This document shows positions 1,836 through 9,909 of a stretch of 12,497 nt of DNA, piece after piece; the first letter of the stretch is position 1; the number at the start of each line of letters is the position of its first letter. A program made the translations under genes and the position numbers. Origin of the DNA: a virus (taxonomy: Duplodnaviria > Heunggongvirae > Uroviricota > Caudoviricetes); the IMG/VR virus record IMGVR_UViG_2859799533_000004; one strand, 5' to 3'. The notes beneath the pieces are model-generated. The model ran no database searches and was not told where the DNA came from. It was given only the letters and a program-made list of their open reading frames with translations.

Positions 1836-2210
1836 ATGAATACTGGATATTCTCCCGAACAAGGGCGGGGCTTCGTTCGTCCTGAAAAACAGAATCTGCA
1901 AAATTTTGCCGAAATTATTCCGGTTATTTCCGGCCTTACTGGCGGGAGTGAAACCAATATTGTTAACGCCAGAGCGTTGCAGATGTTTGATGATAAAAAG
2001 GGAGTAAATTTAACTTACACCCCTGACGGCAATCAGAATATGAGCATTATCTCTGAGTCAGGTTTCTACAAACTAATAAAAACAAAAAGCGCCCCGTTGC
2101 CGGAGCGCCTTTGTGAACAATTAACCTACTGCGCAAAAAATGAATCTGAGCAGTGGGATTATATCAACCATGTGGAGAAGCGCCACAATTGCCGAATAAC
2201 GGGCAAAACA
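1836..2210 (+). CDS. Possible Bro-N-like (antirepressor-type) protein fragment; 3' end undefined because the frame stays open to 3260
   Basis: N-terminal ~125 aa are protein-like and contain a Bro-N-like motif (DDKKGVNLTYTPDGNQNMSIISESGFYKLIKTKS). The remainder of the 474-aa ORF is Cys/Ser/Arg-rich and antisense to better-supported minus-strand genes. End coordinate is nominal. Confidence 0.3.
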
Positions 2211-2311
2211 AAGGCCACCCGCTACGGTGGCCCCTCGACACAAGCTACACGTTATCCCCAACGCATGAGCATTGCCAACAATGCCACATTTGCGGCTGGT
2301 GGGCAATGCAA

Positions 2312-2500
2312 TCAGTCTGGTTCAGTTCGTTGCCATACCTGCAATGAGCGCTTTTCCCTGTACTCTTTAAGGAATTGCTCAAGGGCAAAAGCACATGGCG
2401 CGAATCTTTCTGATTCATGCTCTATCTTTCTGCGCCGTCTTTTCCGTGCCGGTGATAATGTTTTGGTCAATTCTTTATCGGTCATTGTGTTGTCCTGCAT
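2312..2500 (-). CDS. Small basic protein (57-62 aa), second gene of the leftward pair; function unknown
   Basis: ORF with an RRRRK basic patch. An internal ATG at 2485 has a better SD (AGGA, 7-nt spacer) than the ATG at 2500. Lies 42 bp downstream of the RHH-like gene. Confidence 0.45.
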   Translation of the reverse strand: MQDNTMTDKELTKTLSPARKRRRRKIEHESERFAPCAFALEQFLKEYREKRSLQVWQRTEPD

Positions 2501-2542
2501 AGCAATGCGCCGTAATACCTTACACCACGGCGCTGATGGTGA

Positions 2543-2848
2543 TTACTCTGGTTCTTTGGTCTTGCGGCGCTGGAGTTCTTCACGTGCGACAGTGACGAGC
2601 TGCCCGATCTCCTCGGCGGCTTTGATTCCGAGTTTTTCCACCTGCGCCAGTGCATCGAGCGAAGAAACCAGGGGATTTTCTCCACTTCCTTCTGCCTGGC
2701 GCCGGGCGATCTCACCGCGTACAGCCGTAACTATAAAATTCGCTTTAGTTTCCCCTGGCTGTAGGGATGCCTCAATGCCACTCACTACTTCATGTGGAAA
2801 TCTGGCATTCAGTTGCTGTGACTTATTGTTAACAGAACTCCTGGACAT
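2543..2848 (-). CDS. Putative transcriptional regulator, possibly ribbon-helix-helix type; candidate island repressor (or antitoxin)
   Basis: 101-aa protein from ATG at 2848 with strong SD (GGAGGTG, 5-nt spacer). N-terminal pattern NARFPHEVVSGIEASL...TKANFIVTAVRGEIARRQ fits a beta-strand plus two helices. It is transcribed divergently from the main operon across the operator palindromes. Confidence 0.55.
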   Translation of the reverse strand: MSRSSVNNKSQQLNARFPHEVVSGIEASLQPGETKANFIVTAVRGEIARRQAEGSGENPLVSSLDALAQVEKLGIKAAEEIGQLVTVAREELQRRKTKEPE

Positions 2849-2891
2849 GTTTGCACCTCCCATTAATAACGGGATGCAGTGTAATACAAAA

Positions 2892-2946
2892 GTGAATACC
2901 AAAAAAGACTTGAAATGGTATTCACCTAAATGTAATGTGAATACCA
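2892..2946. promoter_or_regulatory. Operator region: three copies of GTGAATACCA forming two overlapping perfect 10-bp-arm palindromes between the divergent genes
   Basis: GTGAATACCA at 2892-2901, TGGTATTCAC at 2916-2925 (inverted), GTGAATACCA at 2937-2946; read directly. Confidence 0.6.
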
Positions 2947-2984
2947 CAAGTGCTGATACATGCAATTCAGCAATTGAAACGACG

Positions 2985-3017
2985 AAGCCCCGCACTGTTG
3001 GAGCAGTAACGGGGCTT
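2985..3017 (+). promoter_or_regulatory. Imperfect long hairpin in the leader of the rightward operon
   Basis: AAGCCCCG(2985-2992) pairs with CGGGGCTT(3010-3017), extended by CACTG/CAGT. No following T-run, so it is not a classic terminator. Confidence 0.3.
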
Positions 3018-3053
3018 CTAACCACCAACGATAACGAGAGTATCGAGGTAGCT

Positions 3054-3260
3054 ATGAGAAATCATACCACACACCCGCAAGGGCGGGACTCGCACAACCT
3101 GAATAAATACATCTGGCGTTTTATCGCCCTGAGCACTGCACAACCGCGCGTGATTACCATTGAGGCCACCAGCGAACAGGAAGCACGCCAGCAATCCCCG
3201 GCTGGCTGCGTGATGGTATTCGCTGCCCGTATTCGTCAGGAGGTGTGCCATGTGCAATAA
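3054..3260 (+). CDS. Small protein (68 aa), first gene of the rightward operon; tentatively Icd-like (P4 cell-division-inhibitor family)
   Basis: ATG 3054 with SD GAGGT (4-nt spacer). Protein-like sequence YIWRFIALSTAQPRVITIEATSEQEARQQ...VMVFAARIR. The family assignment is from memory and unverified. Its stop overlaps the next start. Confidence 0.5.
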   Translation: MRNHTTHPQGRDSHNLNKYIWRFIALSTAQPRVITIEATSEQEARQQSPAGCVMVFAARIRQEVCHVQ

Positions 3261-4289: not shown

Positions 4290-4589
4290 ATGAAACTTAA
4301 ATATTCTGGCTTAACTGCCAGTGGCAACACTCACCCTAAATTTACGCGCGGTGATATTTACCGCGACCAGTACGGCGGCACGGTAATGATTAAGGGCGTG
4401 GAAGAACGGCGTGTAACCTACCGCCGTGAAGGTTACGAATATGATTGCGTGATGCCTGTTTATCAGTTCCGGCGTGATTTTTCTCTGGTACAGACCGCGC
4501 CGCATAACGTGCCCACCAGCAACGCCAGGGCACGGGCAAACATCCAGAAGCTGAAAACCATGGTTAACGGATTCAGGGGCAAGAAATGA
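4290..4589 (+). CDS. Hypothetical protein (99 aa) immediately upstream of, and coupled to, the replicase gene
   Basis: ATG 4290 with GGAGA upstream; its stop overlaps the rep start (ATGA). Confidence 0.65.
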   Translation: MKLKYSGLTASGNTHPKFTRGDIYRDQYGGTVMIKGVEERRVTYRREGYEYDCVMPVYQFRRDFSLVQTAPHNVPTSNARARANIQKLKTMVNGFRGKK

Positions 4590-5884
4590 AAAGCGCACCG
4601 AACTTAAAAAAACAGCCTTACGACAAGATGACCGAAGTCATTATTTTTGCGGGTAGTGATGCCTGGGCACATGCGAAACAGTGGCAGGAACAGGACGGGC
4701 GACTGGCTGGCGATAATGTGCCTCCCGTTGTGCTGGCTGATGATCAACTGGATGAACTGGCAGACCTGAGAATCATCGACGAGGGGCGCTATTGTGTCCG
4801 GCTGTACAAGGCAGGCCACATCAGGCCATCAAATATTAATGCCATTGCGCACAAGCTGGCGGCGGCGGGTGTAACTGATGCGAATTATTACCCCGAAGGG
4901 ATGCACAGCCATATGCGGGAGAACTGGCGCGAATACCTGGAACGGGTGCGCGGGAAAGAGCCGGCGGAAGAAAAAAACCACCAGCGAAAAACCACGCTAC
5001 CGATGAGCGTTGGATCTACCGGATACGACACGCAACTGGATTACGTGGTTAAGGGGATTATTCCGGCGGTATCGCTATGCAGCATATACGGAGCTAGCGG
5101 GTCCTATAAATCATTCCTTGCCGGATCGTGGGCGTGCCATGTTGCCACTGGTCGCCAGTGGGGAGGCCGCAGGGTTGCACATGGTGCGGTTCTCTATGTG
5201 GTTGGTGAAGGCGGTATAGGTGTTCCGCGTCGTGTAAAAGCCTGGGAGGTTGTGCACGATGAGCAGGTGAAAAATCTGTATCTGGTAAACCGCCCCATCT
5301 TTCCGGCTGCCCCGCTTGATGTTGATGAAATGGTTATCGCTGCCCGTCAGGTGGAGCGGGAAACGGGTAAACCTGTACGCATGATTATTCTGGATACGCT
5401 GGCGCGTTGCTTTGGTGGGAATGATGAAAATGATTCCCGTGATATGGGGGCGTTTATCCGTGGTTGTGACGAACTGAAACGACGCACAGGGGCCACGGTG
5501 CTGGTGGTTCACCATTCCGGCAAGGATGAGACGAAAGGCGCGCGCGGTTCCAGTGCATTTCGTGCTTCGCTGGATGCTGAATACCGGATACGCAGGGAGG
5601 ACGCAGGAAGCGAAGCGCTGGTTATCTCATGCACCAAAATGAAGGACGCGGAGGAACTCAAAGAAGCCGCATATGACTTACGCGTGGTGGAGCTTTTTAC
5701 CGACGCTGACGGTGAATTAATCACGTCGCTGGTGGTGGTGGATGATCCGCGCCCTCCTGTTGAACTGGAGCGCATCGAGGAGGCAGGGAACAAGACGGAA
5801 AACCATACCGCGCTATGGGGTGCATCCGTTCACGCACACAGAACGGCGACAAGTGCACGATCCCGCTGTTACGTGATGACATGA
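4586..5884 (+). CDS. Replication protein: RepA/DnaB-like RecA-fold P-loop ATPase (AAA_25-type helicase core) with ~150-aa N-terminal extension
   Basis: P-loop region IYGASGSYKSFLAGSWACHVATG (5090-5113), Walker B VRMIILDTLARCF, and the family-typical VLVVHHSGKDETKGARGSSA motif. The Walker A is non-canonical (Tyr where the Gly before Lys is expected). Confidence 0.82.
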   Translation: MKSAPNLKKQPYDKMTEVIIFAGSDAWAHAKQWQEQDGRLAGDNVPPVVLADDQLDELADLRIIDEGRYCVRLYKAGHIRPSNINAIAHKLAAAGVTDANYYPEGMHSHMRENWREYLERVRGKEPAEEKNHQRKTTLPMSVGSTGYDTQLDYVVKGIIPAVSLCSIYGASGSYKSFLAGSWACHVATGRQWGGRRVAHGAVLYVVGEGGIGVPRRVKAWEVVHDEQVKNLYLVNRPIFPAAPLDVDEMVIAARQVERETGKPVRMIILDTLARCFGGNDENDSRDMGAFIRGCDELKRRTGATVLVVHHSGKDETKGARGSSAFRASLDAEYRIRREDAGSEALVISCTKMKDAEELKEAAYDLRVVELFTDADGELITSLVVVDDPRPPVELERIEEAGNKTENHTALWGASVHAHRTATSARSRCYVMT

Positions 5885-5985
5885 AAAAGCTGGGGTATGA
5901 AATGAAAAACTTCCGGCGCTGGCTGTACAAGCTGGAAAAAGATGGGGTTATTCGTATCGATGGGGATGATGTAGCGCCGCTATAA
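5881..5985 (+). CDS. Small ORF (34 aa) overlapping the rep stop (ATGA); may be a frame-shifted C-terminal part of the replicase rather than a separate gene
   Basis: The +1 frame from 5764 reads as protein-like sequence (..GDKCTIPLLRDDMKKLGYEMKNFRRWLYKLEKDGVIRIDGDDVAPL) whereas the annotated rep tail (HTALWGASVHAHRTATSARSRCYVMT) does not. Confidence 0.3.
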   Translation: MKKLGYEMKNFRRWLYKLEKDGVIRIDGDDVAPL

Positions 5986-6177
5986 AAGTGAGGAGCAAAA
6001 GCGAGGGGGATAGAAAGAGGGCCAAAATTAGCCCGCTCTCCCTCACTTTTCGACCTGTATACATCCTCAAAAGTGAGGGGTAAAAAAATACTTATGAAAC
6101 ACACACATAGAAAAACCGAAAATCCCAACTGCGACGAAGTGAGACGCTTGAAAAAGTGAGGCGAAAAAGTGAGAGGT
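5984..6177 (+). repeat. Iteron cluster, probable replication origin, with central AT-rich unwinding segment
   Basis: AAAAGTGAGG at 5984, 6069 and 6152; AAAAGTGAGA at 6166; variants AAAAGCGAGG (5997) and GAAGTGAGA (6135); an inverted copy CCTCACTTTT (6041-6050); AT-rich stretch 6080-6130. Directly downstream of rep. Confidence 0.7.
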
Positions 6178-6185
6178 TGCGAGAA

Positions 6186-6437
6186 ATGACCCAAAAACGC
6201 AGAGACAGAACAGAGCCAAAATATAAAGCGTTAGACATGACTGAGCACACCTTAAAGGTGGCAATCAGAACGATAGACCGCCACACGCGGGAAGGATACG
6301 CGAAGGAACATCCCGACCTGATAAGCGCATTCATGACCACGGCGGCGGCAAACTTTGCCACGCTGACAGAACGGGAGATTGCCGAAGCGGAACAGGTAAC
6401 AACCATCAACGTTAAAACCGGAGAGGTGGAATCATGA
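6186..6437 (+). CDS. Hypothetical protein (83 aa) overlapping the origin and coupled to ssb
   Basis: Start at ATG 6186 within ORF 6156..6437; stop overlaps the ssb start (ATGA). Confidence 0.5.
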   Translation: MTQKRRDRTEPKYKALDMTEHTLKVAIRTIDRHTREGYAKEHPDLISAFMTTAAANFATLTEREIAEAEQVTTINVKTGEVES

Positions 6438-6856
6438 CAGCACAGATAGCAGCTTACGGGCGGCTGGTGGACGACCCGCAGGTAAAACAGACCAGCAAGG
6501 GCACACCAATGACGCTGGCACGTATGGCGGTCCCCCTTCCGTGCAGCCAGGCAGATGACGGAACGGCGACGATGTGGTTATCCGTCCTGGCATTTGGCAG
6601 ACAGGCCGAAGCACTGGAAAGGCACCGCAAGGGTGAACTCCTGAGCGTGGCGGGTAACATGCAGATCAGCCAGTGGACTGGGCAGAACGGAGAAACGCGG
6701 CAGGGCTGGCAGGTTATCGCAGACAGTGTAATCAGTGCGCGAACGGCGCGACTGGGCGGCAAAAAAGGTCAACAGGGCCAGGCTACTGACGCGCTGAACA
6801 GGGCAAAACAACAGGCGGGGAATGATGATCCGTACGGGGATAACATACCGTTTTAA
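6434..6856 (+). CDS. ssb: Single-stranded DNA-binding protein (SSB, OB fold with acidic C-terminal tail)
   Basis: N-terminal pattern MTAQIAAYGRLVDDPQVKQTSKGTPMTLARMAV and C-terminal ...DDPYGDNIPF, which parallels the E. coli SSB tail DDDIPF. Confidence 0.85.
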   Translation: MTAQIAAYGRLVDDPQVKQTSKGTPMTLARMAVPLPCSQADDGTATMWLSVLAFGRQAEALERHRKGELLSVAGNMQISQWTGQNGETRQGWQVIADSVISARTARLGGKKGQQGQATDALNRAKQQAGNDDPYGDNIPF

Positions 6857-7271: not shown

Positions 7272-7478
7272 ATGGCTGAAGAGAAAAAAGGCGGTGTTTC
7301 GGTGTACATAAGCCCCGAAATCGTGGAGGTGCTCAAGCAGCGCCACAAAAAAAACTATGAGGCTGGCGTGGCGGCTGGACTGGATCCGCTGATGACGCCG
7401 GAGCCGTCGATAGGTTCACTTGTACGCTCTTATTTACTTGCGGCGCTTGGGATGCATAAAAATTATGGGGGTGAATAA
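7272..7478 (+). CDS. Hypothetical protein (68 aa), first gene of the capsid operon
   Basis: ORF with GAGGA upstream; its stop overlaps the capsid gene start (TAATG). Confidence 0.55.
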   Translation: MAEEKKGGVSVYISPEIVEVLKQRHKKNYEAGVAAGLDPLMTPEPSIGSLVRSYLLAALGMHKNYGGE

Positions 7479-8533
7479 TGGCAGGCAAAGCAACGGCACT
7501 TAACACTCACCAGCTTTTTGCGTACCTGAATCGCGGGGATATTGCGGAATTTAAATTTAGTCCGCTGTTTACCACGCTGTTTTTCCCGAAAGTAGCGACA
7601 TTCAACACCCAAAACATCATGCTGGATAACCTGGACACCGAAGAAGTCACTATGTCAGCGTTTTGCTCGCCTATGGTTGGTAGCCAGGTACAGCGCGATA
7701 AAGGGTACGAAACCAGCACGATTAAACCTGGCTACATGAAGCCAAAGCACGAAATCGATCCAACAAAAACCATCATGCGCATGGCTGGAGAAGATCCGGC
7801 ACAGCTTAACGACCCAACCTATCGCCGTATGCGCCTGATTACTGGCAACATGCGCCGCCAGGTAAACGCTATTAAAGCGCGTGTTGAATGGCTGGCGGTA
7901 AATGCGGTAACGACCGGAAAAAACATCATTGAGGGCGAAGGCATAGAACGCTATGAAATCGACTGGAAGATGCCGGAAAACAACATCATAGAGCAGGCCA
8001 AAGGCCGTAAATGGTCCGAGCAGGACAAAGAAACCCACGATCCAATCTATGATATCGAGCTTTATGCGGATCAGGGCAATTGCCCCGCAAACGTCATGAT
8101 TATGGGCGCTGAGGTATGGCGCACGTTACGCAGCTTTAAAAAATTCCGCGAACTGTACGATCTTTCCCGTGGTTCAGAATCCGCCGCAGAACTGGCCTGT
8201 AAAAACCTGGGCGAAGTGGTGAGCTTTAAAGGCTATCTGGGCGATATTGCCCTTATCGTCTATTCCGGCAAATACGCCGACAGCGACGGCACCGAAAAAC
8301 ATTTCCTTGAGCCTGATTTGCTGGTCTTGGGCAACACCAACAATAAAGGGCTGGTTGCTTATGGTGCGATTATGGATCAGGAAGCGGTAAGAACGGGCGC
8401 AACGCAAAACATGTACTACCCGAAAAACTGGATTGAGGACGGCGATCCGGCGATTGAGTACGTGCAGACGCACAGCGCACCGCAGCCGGTGCCGGCAGAC
8501 ATTCGCAAATTTGTTACCGTCAAAATTGGTTAA
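7478..8533 (+). CDS. Major capsid protein, phage lambda gpE family
   Basis: 351 aa. Shares multiple blocks with lambda gpE as recalled: FKFSPLF..LFFP, PGYMKPKHE, EDPAQLNDPTYRRMR, RGSESAAEL..LGEVVSFKGYLGDIALIVYSGKY, YPKNW, GDPA. Similar length to gpE (341 aa). Confidence 0.85.
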   Translation: MAGKATALNTHQLFAYLNRGDIAEFKFSPLFTTLFFPKVATFNTQNIMLDNLDTEEVTMSAFCSPMVGSQVQRDKGYETSTIKPGYMKPKHEIDPTKTIMRMAGEDPAQLNDPTYRRMRLITGNMRRQVNAIKARVEWLAVNAVTTGKNIIEGEGIERYEIDWKMPENNIIEQAKGRKWSEQDKETHDPIYDIELYADQGNCPANVMIMGAEVWRTLRSFKKFRELYDLSRGSESAAELACKNLGEVVSFKGYLGDIALIVYSGKYADSDGTEKHFLEPDLLVLGNTNNKGLVAYGAIMDQEAVRTGATQNMYYPKNWIEDGDPAIEYVQTHSAPQPVPADIRKFVTVKIG

Positions 8534-8544
8534 CGGGGGATTCT

Positions 8545-8880
8545 ATGAACACTCCATACATTGAGTTATTTGCAGGCAGTCAGCAGGTATCCACGACGCT
8601 GGTACATTTTGCCGCTGATGCTGGCGTCATTCAGGAATTTACCCCGCTGATGCTGGCGGACAATGGCGAGTTTAAGCCGTGGGATGGTCAGGCGTCCGGA
8701 AAGGCTGTTTATCTGACTTCGTACCCCGTGGACACGTCAAAGCAGAAATCAGCACAGTGCTACAAGACGGGGATCTTTAATATCGCCGCCGTGAACTGGC
8801 CCGAGAGCGTCGACACCGATGCGAAAAAATGCGCCGCCTTTGCGGGTTCTGGCGTATCCGTTCAGCCGCTGGCCCGATAA
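8545..8880 (+). CDS. Head decoration protein, phage lambda gpD family
   Basis: 111 aa versus 110 aa for gpD. Shared motifs TPLMLAD, WDG, YKTG.F, WPE, KK.AAFAG. Confidence 0.78.
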   Translation: MNTPYIELFAGSQQVSTTLVHFAADAGVIQEFTPLMLADNGEFKPWDGQASGKAVYLTSYPVDTSKQKSAQCYKTGIFNIAAVNWPESVDTDAKKCAAFAGSGVSVQPLAR

Positions 8881-8892
8881 GCAGGGGGAACG

Positions 8893-9306
8893 ATGGCAAC
8901 GAATGAAAGCATCATGACGCTACCGCTGGCGAGTAAATTTAAAGCCGAAGCGCGGGCAATGGCTGACAGAGGTTTATCAACCTACGAGGCCGTATATCAA
9001 CTCAACAAACTGGAAGAGCAGGACAAGCCGCGCGCTGATGCGATTATGGCGCTTCATGAGCATAACGACTATCAGCCGCTGTTACGTGCAATGGCAAACG
9101 TGCCTTGTATCGATGTTGGTACGGCTAAAAGCATCCTTAGCATGACCATAGAGCAGGAACGCCAGAAGGTTGCGCCGGAGCTTACCGCAGCCTTTGAAAA
9201 CTTTATGGACATGCACAGCCCGCAAGCCGTTTCAGCTGGCATGGCATACGACGGCAGAAACCCGGGCGATGATGGCGACATCGAGAGCATACTGAAAACC
9301 ATCTGA
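8893..9306 (+). CDS. Hypothetical protein (137 aa), last gene of the capsid operon, immediately upstream of cos
   Basis: ORF with GGGGGAA SD; no family recognised. Candidate packaging accessory protein by position only. Confidence 0.6.
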   Translation: MATNESIMTLPLASKFKAEARAMADRGLSTYEAVYQLNKLEEQDKPRADAIMALHEHNDYQPLLRAMANVPCIDVGTAKSILSMTIEQERQKVAPELTAAFENFMDMHSPQAVSAGMAYDGRNPGDDGDIESILKTI

Positions 9307-9311
9307 GACAA

Positions 9312-9334
9312 GGCCGGAGAAATCCGGCTTTTTT
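9312..9334 (+). terminator. Rho-independent terminator after the capsid operon
   Basis: GCCGGA-gaaa-TCCGGC hairpin plus TTTTTTT; nearly identical to the terminator at 6873-6894. Confidence 0.7.
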
Positions 9335-9420
9335 TACGGGTCCTTTCCGGCATATGGACCCGTTACGGGGCGGCGACCTCGCGGGTTTTCGCTATTTATG
9401 ACGTTTTTCCGTGAAGGTGA
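9335..9420 (+). other. Lambda-type cohesive-end site (S2): cosQ, cosN and the start of a lambda-like cosB
   Basis: ACGGGTCCTTTCCGG...GACCCGTTACG then GGGCGGCGACCT (9367-9378) CGCGGGTTTTCGCTATTTATGA matches the lambda right-end/left-end junction as recalled; followed by CGTTTTTCCGTG, resembling lambda R3. Confidence 0.85.
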
Positions 9421-9468
9421 CACCACCACCACTTGATTAATATTTAACCATGCAGTTAAGGTAACATT

Positions 9469-9909
9469 ATGATTGATAAAGCTTGTTTTGTAAGTCAGCA
9501 GGAAATAGCTGAACATTTCAAGGTTAACAGAACCACTATTCGCGCATGGACCAAACAGGGGATGCCGTATCTTAATGCGGATCGCGGAAAGTCTGGCGGT
9601 TATCACATCGGGCATACATTGCTTTGGTCTTCAGGTAAAAGCCGTCTTGAGGCCATCAGATATCACGTAGAAACCAGTGCGCTGGAAAAAATTATGTTTG
9701 CCAGGCTGCTTTCATCTGAGCGTGACGAGTACTCCAGTGAAGAAACAGAACATAGATTTGATGAAGGTTTACAGATTTACGGCTACTCACCGGAAGAAGT
9801 GAGCAAAGCGCGAAATAAAATGGCCGGCTTTCTGGCTGGGTGGCGTCATGCCGTAAGCGTTCGCCGTGCCAGCATGGAACAATCAGTCGTTACAGAACAG
9901 CAAAGTTAA
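9469..9909 (+). CDS. Small-terminase-like protein with Nu1-type N-terminal winged-HTH; candidate island packaging-specificity factor
   Basis: N-terminus VSQQEIAEHFKVNRTTIRAWTKQGMPYL parallels lambda Nu1 VNKKQLADIFGASIRTIQNWQEQGMPVL; the C-terminal half is unrelated to Nu1. Gene sits directly downstream of cos, as Nu1 does in lambda. Confidence 0.72.
   Translation: MIDKACFVSQQEIAEHFKVNRTTIRAWTKQGMPYLNADRGKSGGYHIGHTLLWSSGKSRLEAIRYHVETSALEKIMFARLLSSERDEYSSEETEHRFDEGLQIYGYSPEEVSKARNKMAGFLAGWRHAVSVRRASMEQSVVTEQQS

Follow-up and report, generated by a model that had tools for sequence, protein, structure and literature searches.

An aromatic residue before the Walker A lysine of a putative RepA-like replicative helicase from an Escherichia coli satellite island

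RSF1010 RepA (PDB codes: 1g8y, 1nlf, and 1olo) is a protein of 279 residues with a RecA-fold motor, along which the P-loop lysine and serine are followed, in order, by the motifs PAED, LDTL, HHxxK, and RGSS. We take these four to hold the catalytic glutamate, the Walker B aspartate, the histidine sensor, and the arginine finger. The same motor and the same order of motifs (with the glutamate in GEG rather than PAED) recur in the helicase that is the subject of this article. Its gene lies in a stretch of 12,497 nucleotides classed as a virus of the Caudoviricetes (IMG/VR record IMGVR_UViG_2859799533_000004), which we call the window and in whose numbering all positions are given. The element is a phage-inducible chromosomal island (PICI)-type satellite, integrated between roxA and phoQ of Escherichia coli. 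RepA is ~17% identical to the satellite helicase and is without two of its parts, the N-terminal domain (residues 1-122) and the ~60-residue C-terminal domain of the intact allele. It also differs in the P-loop: RepA reads GAGKS where the satellite helicase reads GSYKS. It is this tyrosine, in the place of a glycine, that concerns us here.

Two other helicases offer a comparison. The helicase-primase of the Guernseyvirinae (gp43 of Salmonella phage vB_SenS-Ent1; phrog_3228) has in common with the satellite helicase an AAA_25-type motor, a P-loop tyrosine in the corresponding place, and the catalytic residues, but it is a protein of ~728 residues fused to a primase, with ~29-30% identity over the motor. 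In the satellite helicase, for its part, the N-terminal domain is unrelated and no primase can be recognised. The MCM2-7 proteins form an active ring helicase in which the pre-lysine glycine is likewise replaced (GDP[GS]T[AS]KSQ); the Walker A motifs of yeast Mcm2-6 read GDPGTAKSQ or GDPSTSKSQ, so that these are active hexameric helicases without this glycine (PMC2952866, Table 1). Their fold, however, is AAA+ and not RecA/RepA-like, the replacement is small (alanine or serine) and not aromatic, and the homology extends only to the P-loop fold class.

As an island, the nearest described system is EcCIEDL933, a capsid-forming PICI (cf-PICI) of strain EDL933, which replicates upon helper induction (bioRxiv 10.1101/2022.09.08.507074). 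It occupies the same roxA/phoQ site, has a gene for a single-strand DNA-binding protein (SSB) downstream, and carries directly upstream of its replicase a DUF4222 protein 81% identical to that of our island. The first 122 residues of its replicase (DUF927 protein WP_000761781) are 67% identical to those of the satellite helicase. There the likeness ends: the EcCIEDL933 motor is a DUF927 domain, unrelated in sequence to AAA_25, and does not share the Walker A variant. Islands of the cf-PICI type, of which EcCIEDL933 is the prototype, also encode a capsid, protease, portal, head-tail adaptors, HNH protein, TerS, and large terminase (TerL) of their own.

From the alignments described below, we think it probable that the tyrosine, Tyr174, is not a lesion. 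It would instead be a conserved, selected, and clade-wide Walker A variant, GxSGx[YF]KSF, of a known helicase family, the ancestral state in its clade, and part of a putative RepA-like replicative helicase. The aromatic variant is apparently undescribed in the literature we searched.

The P-loop of the satellite helicase

The features of the helicase gene on which the argument turns are these.
4586-5884, + strand: RepA/AAA_25-type helicase gene, 432 residues as read in the window (open reading frame (ORF) list and translation)
4586-4951, + strand: N-terminal domain, residues 1-122, modular and alpha/beta; the linker to the motor (residues 125-132) is low-confidence in the structural model
5090-5113, + strand: Walker A motif (P-loop), G169-S176 (translation, alignment with GAGKS of RepA, and AlphaFold model)
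5207-5209, + strand: Glu208 (in YVVGEG), putative catalytic glutamate, aligned with the glutamate of PAED in RSF1010 RepA
5393-5395, + strand: Asp270 (in MIILDTL), Walker B aspartate, aligned with VLDTL of RepA
5510-5515, + strand: His309-His310 (in VVHHSGK), putative gamma-phosphate sensor, aligned with FLHHASK of RepA
5543-5545, + strand: Arg320 (in GARGSS), putative arginine finger, aligned with SRGSS of RepA

With the ATG at 4586 as codon 1, the P-loop is G169-A-S-G-S-Y174-K175-S176, encoded by the codons GGA GCT AGC GGG TCC TAT AAA TCA, and the TAT of Tyr174 (5105-5107) stands directly before that of the Walker A lysine, Lys175. The canonical GxxxxGK[ST] is therefore departed from at one point: the first glycine, the lysine, and the serine are kept, and the pre-lysine glycine is a tyrosine. 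An initial annotation, made from the sequence alone, had drawn attention to this substitution, and both the translation and the alignment with RepA bear it out. In that alignment (phmmer and a 71-sequence profile), Tyr174 falls on the pre-lysine glycine of 1g8y, gsyKSF over GAGKSM, without a gap. Relatives with the canonical glycine also align ungapped, YGPSGSGKSF over YGPSGSYKSF. The loop thus keeps its length and register, and the change is a simple exchange of the residue before the lysine. Beyond the P-loop, E208, D270, H309/H310, and R320 follow in RepA order, each aligned to its RepA motif.

The Pfam AAA_25 profile (PF13481) matches the helicase ORF at E = 2.2e-43 with 148.6 bits, against a cut-off of 27, and covers residues 148-315 and profile positions 19-194 of 195; the assignment to RepA/AAA_25 made by the initial annotation stands, and the context motifs it quoted are all present in the translation. 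The ORF also matches phrog_2850 (E = 3e-235, profile positions 1-409 of 465) and phrog_3228 (E = 1.9e-26), and the RefSeq label of the 466-residue allele, WP_000833618, is 'helicase RepA family protein'. For the DnaB family (PF03796), there is no Pfam DnaB_C match to the helicase ORF at E<=0.01, and the match to phrog_19 is weak (E = 4.5e-4). Neither the N-terminal (residues 1-135) nor the C-terminal domain matches a Pfam family at E<=1. The N-terminal domain does match phrog_864, 'DNA primase', at E = 1.9e-14, and elsewhere it is found alone or on other motors (P0164, 711 residues; P0186, 233 residues; P0243, 564 residues).

The homology extends to proteins of solved structure and to the fold. 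A search of PDB sequences with the 71-sequence profile found RSF1010 RepA at E = 3.3e-13, and by sequence alone nothing in the PDB came closer than RSF1010 RepA and Rad51 paralogues/RadA. The AlphaFold model of the helicase (mean predicted local distance difference test score, pLDDT, of 89) shows a RecA-like fold similar to that of RSF1010 RepA: Foldseek aligns it to 1g8y_A with E = 6e-11, a target-normalised TM-score (TMt) of 0.73, and a root mean square deviation of 4.6 Å, making RepA its best solved neighbour by TMt, with Rad51, Dmc1, RadA, and KaiC next among the top matches. The P-loop is modelled in its usual arrangement, a strand (164-169), the loop, and a helix from 175, with a pLDDT of 96-99 across the block.

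How might such a loop accommodate an aromatic residue? The pre-lysine glycine of P-loops adopts a left-handed conformation, and its backbone amide contacts the phosphate. Given this geometry, a side chain at the position would be costly but not forbidden, and an aromatic one may be tolerated because it is the backbone amide, and not the side chain, that makes the phosphate contact. The ring of Tyr174 would most likely point away from the anion hole and pack on neighbouring protein or on the sugar or base of the nucleotide.

The pre-lysine residue among relatives

Conservation of the tyrosine is directly apparent among close relatives. Every one of the 120 listed matches from a search of 5.8 billion proteins, 59-96% identical to the satellite helicase and drawn from E. 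coli, Salmonella, Enterobacter, Citrobacter, and Klebsiella, reads GSYKSF. An alignment of homologues had been proposed in the initial annotation. It was the right test, and a tyrosine this uniform points to a family-specific variant.

To look further out, we ran HMMER exhaustively against 1.84 billion cluster representatives at 50% identity and obtained 32,728 matches; the best 150 of these were taken, and 145 were alignable at the P-loop. The pre-lysine residue in the 145 is tyrosine in 48, phenylalanine in 35, glycine in 49, leucine in 7, cysteine and alanine in 2 each, and arginine and tryptophan in 1 each. Tyrosine or phenylalanine thus accounts for 83 of the 145, and for 83 of the 96 that do not have glycine. 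The premise of the initial annotation, that this glycine is close to invariant, holds for P-loop NTPases in general and fails within this subfamily, where it is the residue of 49 representatives out of 145. Since a non-canonical Walker A is common to 96 of these nearest representatives, we regard it as a trait of the subfamily and see in it no ground for excluding the protein from AAA_25.

A neighbour-joining tree computed without the pre-lysine column gathers the aromatic sequences into a single large block, which has a few glycine-type sequences inside it and is flanked by glycine-type blocks. Parsimony on this tree requires at least 14 switches between glycine and non-glycine. The rest of the active site does not follow these switches. 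Conserved at >=95% in the 83 aromatic and the 49 glycine-type representatives alike are K175, S/T176, F177, E208, D270-T271, R274, E281-N282, H309-H310, R320-G321, K351, and K353. E208, an invariant column in the alignment, is kept in 82/83 aromatic and 49/49 glycine-type representatives, and D270 is invariant in both groups; H309-H310 is conserved in 80/83 and 49/49 (the remainder being gaps), and R320 likewise in 80/83 and 49/49.

The codon tells a similar story. We retrieved 76 genomic loci (many Enterobacterales genera plus Aeromonas) via 18 closer sequences, using two search patterns of which one contained the tyrosine, so that the set is usable for codon turnover and not for the frequency of tyrosine; the codon is TAT in 53, TAC in 17, TTC in 4, and TTT in 2. 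Both tyrosine codons and both phenylalanine codons are in use, which means that the codon turns over and the aromatic residue is retained. Kept across hundreds of homologues in all, the feature is no product of chance.

Only two features differ between the glycine and the aromatic groups: L382 and a clade-associated motif, G-[SF]-x-G-[YFW]-[DN], which sits 21-26 residues upstream of the P-loop position. Neither qualifies as a covarying partner, and we rejected both as clade markers, with exceptions in both directions. Glycine-type representatives inside the clade can have the upstream motif (P0194 and P0212), tyrosine-type ones can be without it (P0225 and P0237), and no column of the core covaries with the state.

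Isolated phages have the variant too. The primase-linked replicative helicase of the Salmonella Jerseyviruses Ent1 and SHWT1, Klebsiella phage D1, and Escherichia phage K-01 reads GESGTYKSF, so that tyrosine is found in four of the four Jerseyvirus-like phages sampled. Vibrio phage 1.210.O has GSYKSF and Vibrio phage 1220 has GTFKTF. Related phages (Cornellvirus, Dhillonvirus, Caulobacter GB2A, and Mycobacterium Donny) have the canonical glycine, and in two others the position is taken by lysine, as GDSGSKKTF in Pantoea phage AAM37 and GESGAKKTF in Escherichia phage Sortsne. In E. coli itself, 1395 of 5426 complete genomes contain the gene, 558 of them at >=80% coverage, and the annotation is that of an intact protein of 466 residues.

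Probable activity of the aromatic clade and a candidate origin

Might the aromatic clade nonetheless consist of pseudo-ATPases, proteins that bind nucleotide, hydrolyse it poorly or not at all, and serve as an origin-binding scaffold or as a loader that recruits the host DnaB? A bulky residue does replace a glycine that is conserved in most P-loop NTPases, and an island in which Pfam and phrog matches reveal no recognisable primase or polymerase would rely on host replication proteins anyway. Nor did our literature searches turn up the biochemistry of any member. Yet the aromatic group keeps E208, H309/H310, and R320, which serve only hydrolysis and the coupling between subunits, no less strictly than the glycine group does, and residues with no other purpose would not be expected to persist in a clade that had lost hydrolysis. 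The interleaving of the two types on the tree suggests that the two states are functionally interchangeable, and lytic phages have the same domain, fused to a primase, as their replicative helicase-primase. All told, we consider a clade of pseudo-ATPases unlikely. The proposal of the initial annotation that the island replicase may be ATPase-impaired accordingly finds no support: tyrosine is uniform among the listed close homologues, aromatic residues predominate among the nearest representatives, the other catalytic residues are invariant, and the variant occurs in phages that propagate. Uniform tyrosine in active homologues would speak against impairment, and that is largely what we see, activity being indicated indirectly by phage viability and by purifying selection.

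The opposite possibility is a gain of function, in which a contact of the aromatic residue with the ribose, the base, or the neighbouring subunit alters nucleotide preference or coupling, making the clade a distinct subclass. The bias of the non-glycine residues towards tyrosine and phenylalanine, and not towards small residues, hints at selection for the ring beyond mere tolerance, and the upstream motif is associated with the clade. Against this, leucine, cysteine, alanine, arginine, tryptophan, and lysine are occasionally accepted at the position, which argues that the ring is not essential; the exceptions to the upstream motif run both ways; and no core column covaries with the state. A gain of function of this kind seems to us very unlikely. 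As for a private mutation or sequencing error in the window copy, three homopolymer-length errors or variants do occur in the window, one of them in the helicase gene, but we give the idea next to no chance and count it refuted: the TAT is identical in near-identical genomes, the tyrosine is shared by all the listed close homologues, TAT is, as the initial annotation had rightly argued, two substitutions from any GGN codon, and the site is not a homopolymer.

The homopolymer variant in the helicase gene is a separate matter, and it concerns two further features.
5813-5816, + strand: a run of four G where near-identical genomes have five, which frameshifts the helicase (pairwise alignment with CP030768)
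5815-5985, + strand: displaced frame coding the true C-terminal ~57 residues (…CIRSRTQNGDKCTIPLLRDDMKKLGYEMKNFRRWLYKLEKDGVIRIDGDDVAPL; ORF list and translation of the reference allele)

The helicase match measures 1299 bases in the window against 1300 in each listed genome. This one-base contraction at 5816 shortens the protein from 466 to 432 residues and puts the last 24 codons of the window ORF out of frame; the displaced frame matches phrog_2850 positions 380-465. Compared with a 99.9%-identical E. coli genome, the sole insertions or deletions in the window are at 1470 (C5 to C4), 5816 (G5 to G4), and 10665 (G5 to G4). Three contractions of a single base, all in homopolymers of five, make the usual pattern of sequencing error, and so the frameshift is probably an artefact of the source assembly. 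It has nothing to do with Tyr174.

Several points weigh against our view that Tyr174 belongs to a selected variant of a working helicase. The manner in which the 76 codon loci were retrieved is one. Another is that Ent1 has a second, unrelated gene labelled 'DNA helicase', which makes phage viability strong, and not absolute, evidence of function. RepA-like helicases are marked by a hexameric ring, DNA-stimulated ATPase, and 5'-3' unwinding; literature searches found no ATPase or helicase assay of any aromatic-clade member, and no paper on its motif strings. The replication of EcCIEDL933 we rejected as proof of activity, since its motor is DUF927 and only the N-terminal domain of the replicase is common to the two islands. 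Lastly, were the frameshift at 5816 real, the window copy might lack function on that account, quite apart from Tyr174.

Directly downstream of the helicase gene lies a stretch that may show where the protein acts.
5984-6174: six AAAAGTGAGG repeats, AAAAG[T/C]GAG[G/A], five direct and one inverted (repeat families D1/D2 and I2-I5)

The consensus AAAAG[T/C]GAG[G/A] has six matches, all within this 190-bp stretch, where 0.89 would be expected in the whole window, and none of 200 shuffles reached six. The repeats start at the stop codon of the repaired helicase gene, and G+C falls to 0.40-0.45 across them. We regard them as a candidate iteron-type origin of the island. By analogy with the replicases of staphylococcal islands, the C-terminal ~57-60 residues of the intact allele may be an origin-recognition domain, the natural candidate to recognise the repeats. 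Put together, the helicase would form a ring, probably a hexamer, and would bind ATP at the subunit interfaces and hydrolyse it as in RSF1010 RepA. Its C-terminal domain would target it to the AAAAGTGAGG repeats, and it could then unwind the island origin.

The island and what the variant means

Several complete E. coli chromosomes carry, between roxA and phoQ, a stretch with 99.9% identity to the window. Around the helicase are the following features.
1-1230: integrase
1427-1783: AlpA-domain gene
Between the AlpA-domain gene and the DUF4222 gene: small genes, function unassigned
4290-4589, + strand: DUF4222 gene (Pfam DUF4222, E = 1.6e-24), the stop of which overlaps the helicase start by 4 nt (4586-4589)
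6434-6856, + strand: SSB gene, part of the replication module (Pfam SSB, E = 4.9e-15; phrog_44, E = 3.3e-37)
7478-8533: major head protein, lambda-like (phrog_29)

The region 7478-9909 also holds a head-decoration protein (phrog_49), a phrog_1999 protein, and a weak ORF resembling the small terminase (TerS). The layout is that of a PICI, with integrase, alpA, replication genes, and packaging/capsid genes in turn at a chromosomal att site, and the island stops before phoQ. The ORF list, Pfam, and phrog matches reveal no portal, protease, or TerL ORF in the window, which leaves the full cf-PICI gene set incomplete; the island fits neither that set nor the classical description of a PICI. One database homologue, a 563-residue E. 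coli protein (P0001), carries PF02924, which we take to be the family of the lambda head-decoration protein D, together with AAA_25 in one chain; two island genes may have been fused here in assembly or annotation. Farther upstream in the window, a 474-residue ORF (1836-3260, + strand), a putative gene, shows weak BRO-N/anti-repressor similarity over residues 49-84, and its residues 383-473 match phrog_6196, 'transcriptional repressor', strongly. RefSeq has only small genes there, on both strands, and labels the 3' stretch 'host cell division inhibitor Icd-like protein'.

The DUF4222 gene together with helicase residues 1-122 (window 4290-4951) is a module common with EcCIEDL933 (13742-14410 of L003), where it sits on the unrelated DUF927 motor. 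Other E. coli islands at the site (H62-H74 and H105), ~96-98% identical over ~80% of the window, have in place of the helicase a 'DNA primase family' protein, a P4-type primase, or a DUF5906 replicase, so that the replication module is swapped as a cassette.

What, then, does the variant mean? A bolder proposal is that, among the RepA-type ring helicases of phages and satellites, G-x-S-G-x-[Y/F]-K-S-F marks a subclass with a mechanism of its own. The aromatic ring would there contribute to catalysis or coupling; it might, for example, stack on the sugar or base of the nucleotide and change the preference between NTP and dNTP, or form a bridge to the arginine finger of the neighbouring subunit. 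It is a doubtful idea, one we would put forward only as an outside chance. If true, this would be the first described clade of P-loop NTPases to select a bulky aromatic residue at the pre-lysine position.

On the reading we prefer, that of a conserved variant in a known helicase family, the interest is more modest, that of a natural exception to the P-loop consensus. It has practical consequences all the same. The replicase of this island should not be deemed defective on account of Tyr174; its only apparent defect is the probable homopolymer error at 5816. Applied as an obligatory rule, GxxxxGK[ST] would wrongly call a whole clade of phage and satellite helicases dead, including the helicase-primases of the sampled Jerseyvirus-like phages, whose relatives account for many of the 351 Salmonella and 229 Escherichia phage records with a match to the motor. 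For the enzymologist, the clade is a natural experiment, in which close relatives differ as glycine, tyrosine, phenylalanine, leucine, or lysine at one position of the P-loop while the rest of the site is unchanged. It makes the need for an 'invariant' glycine easy to test.

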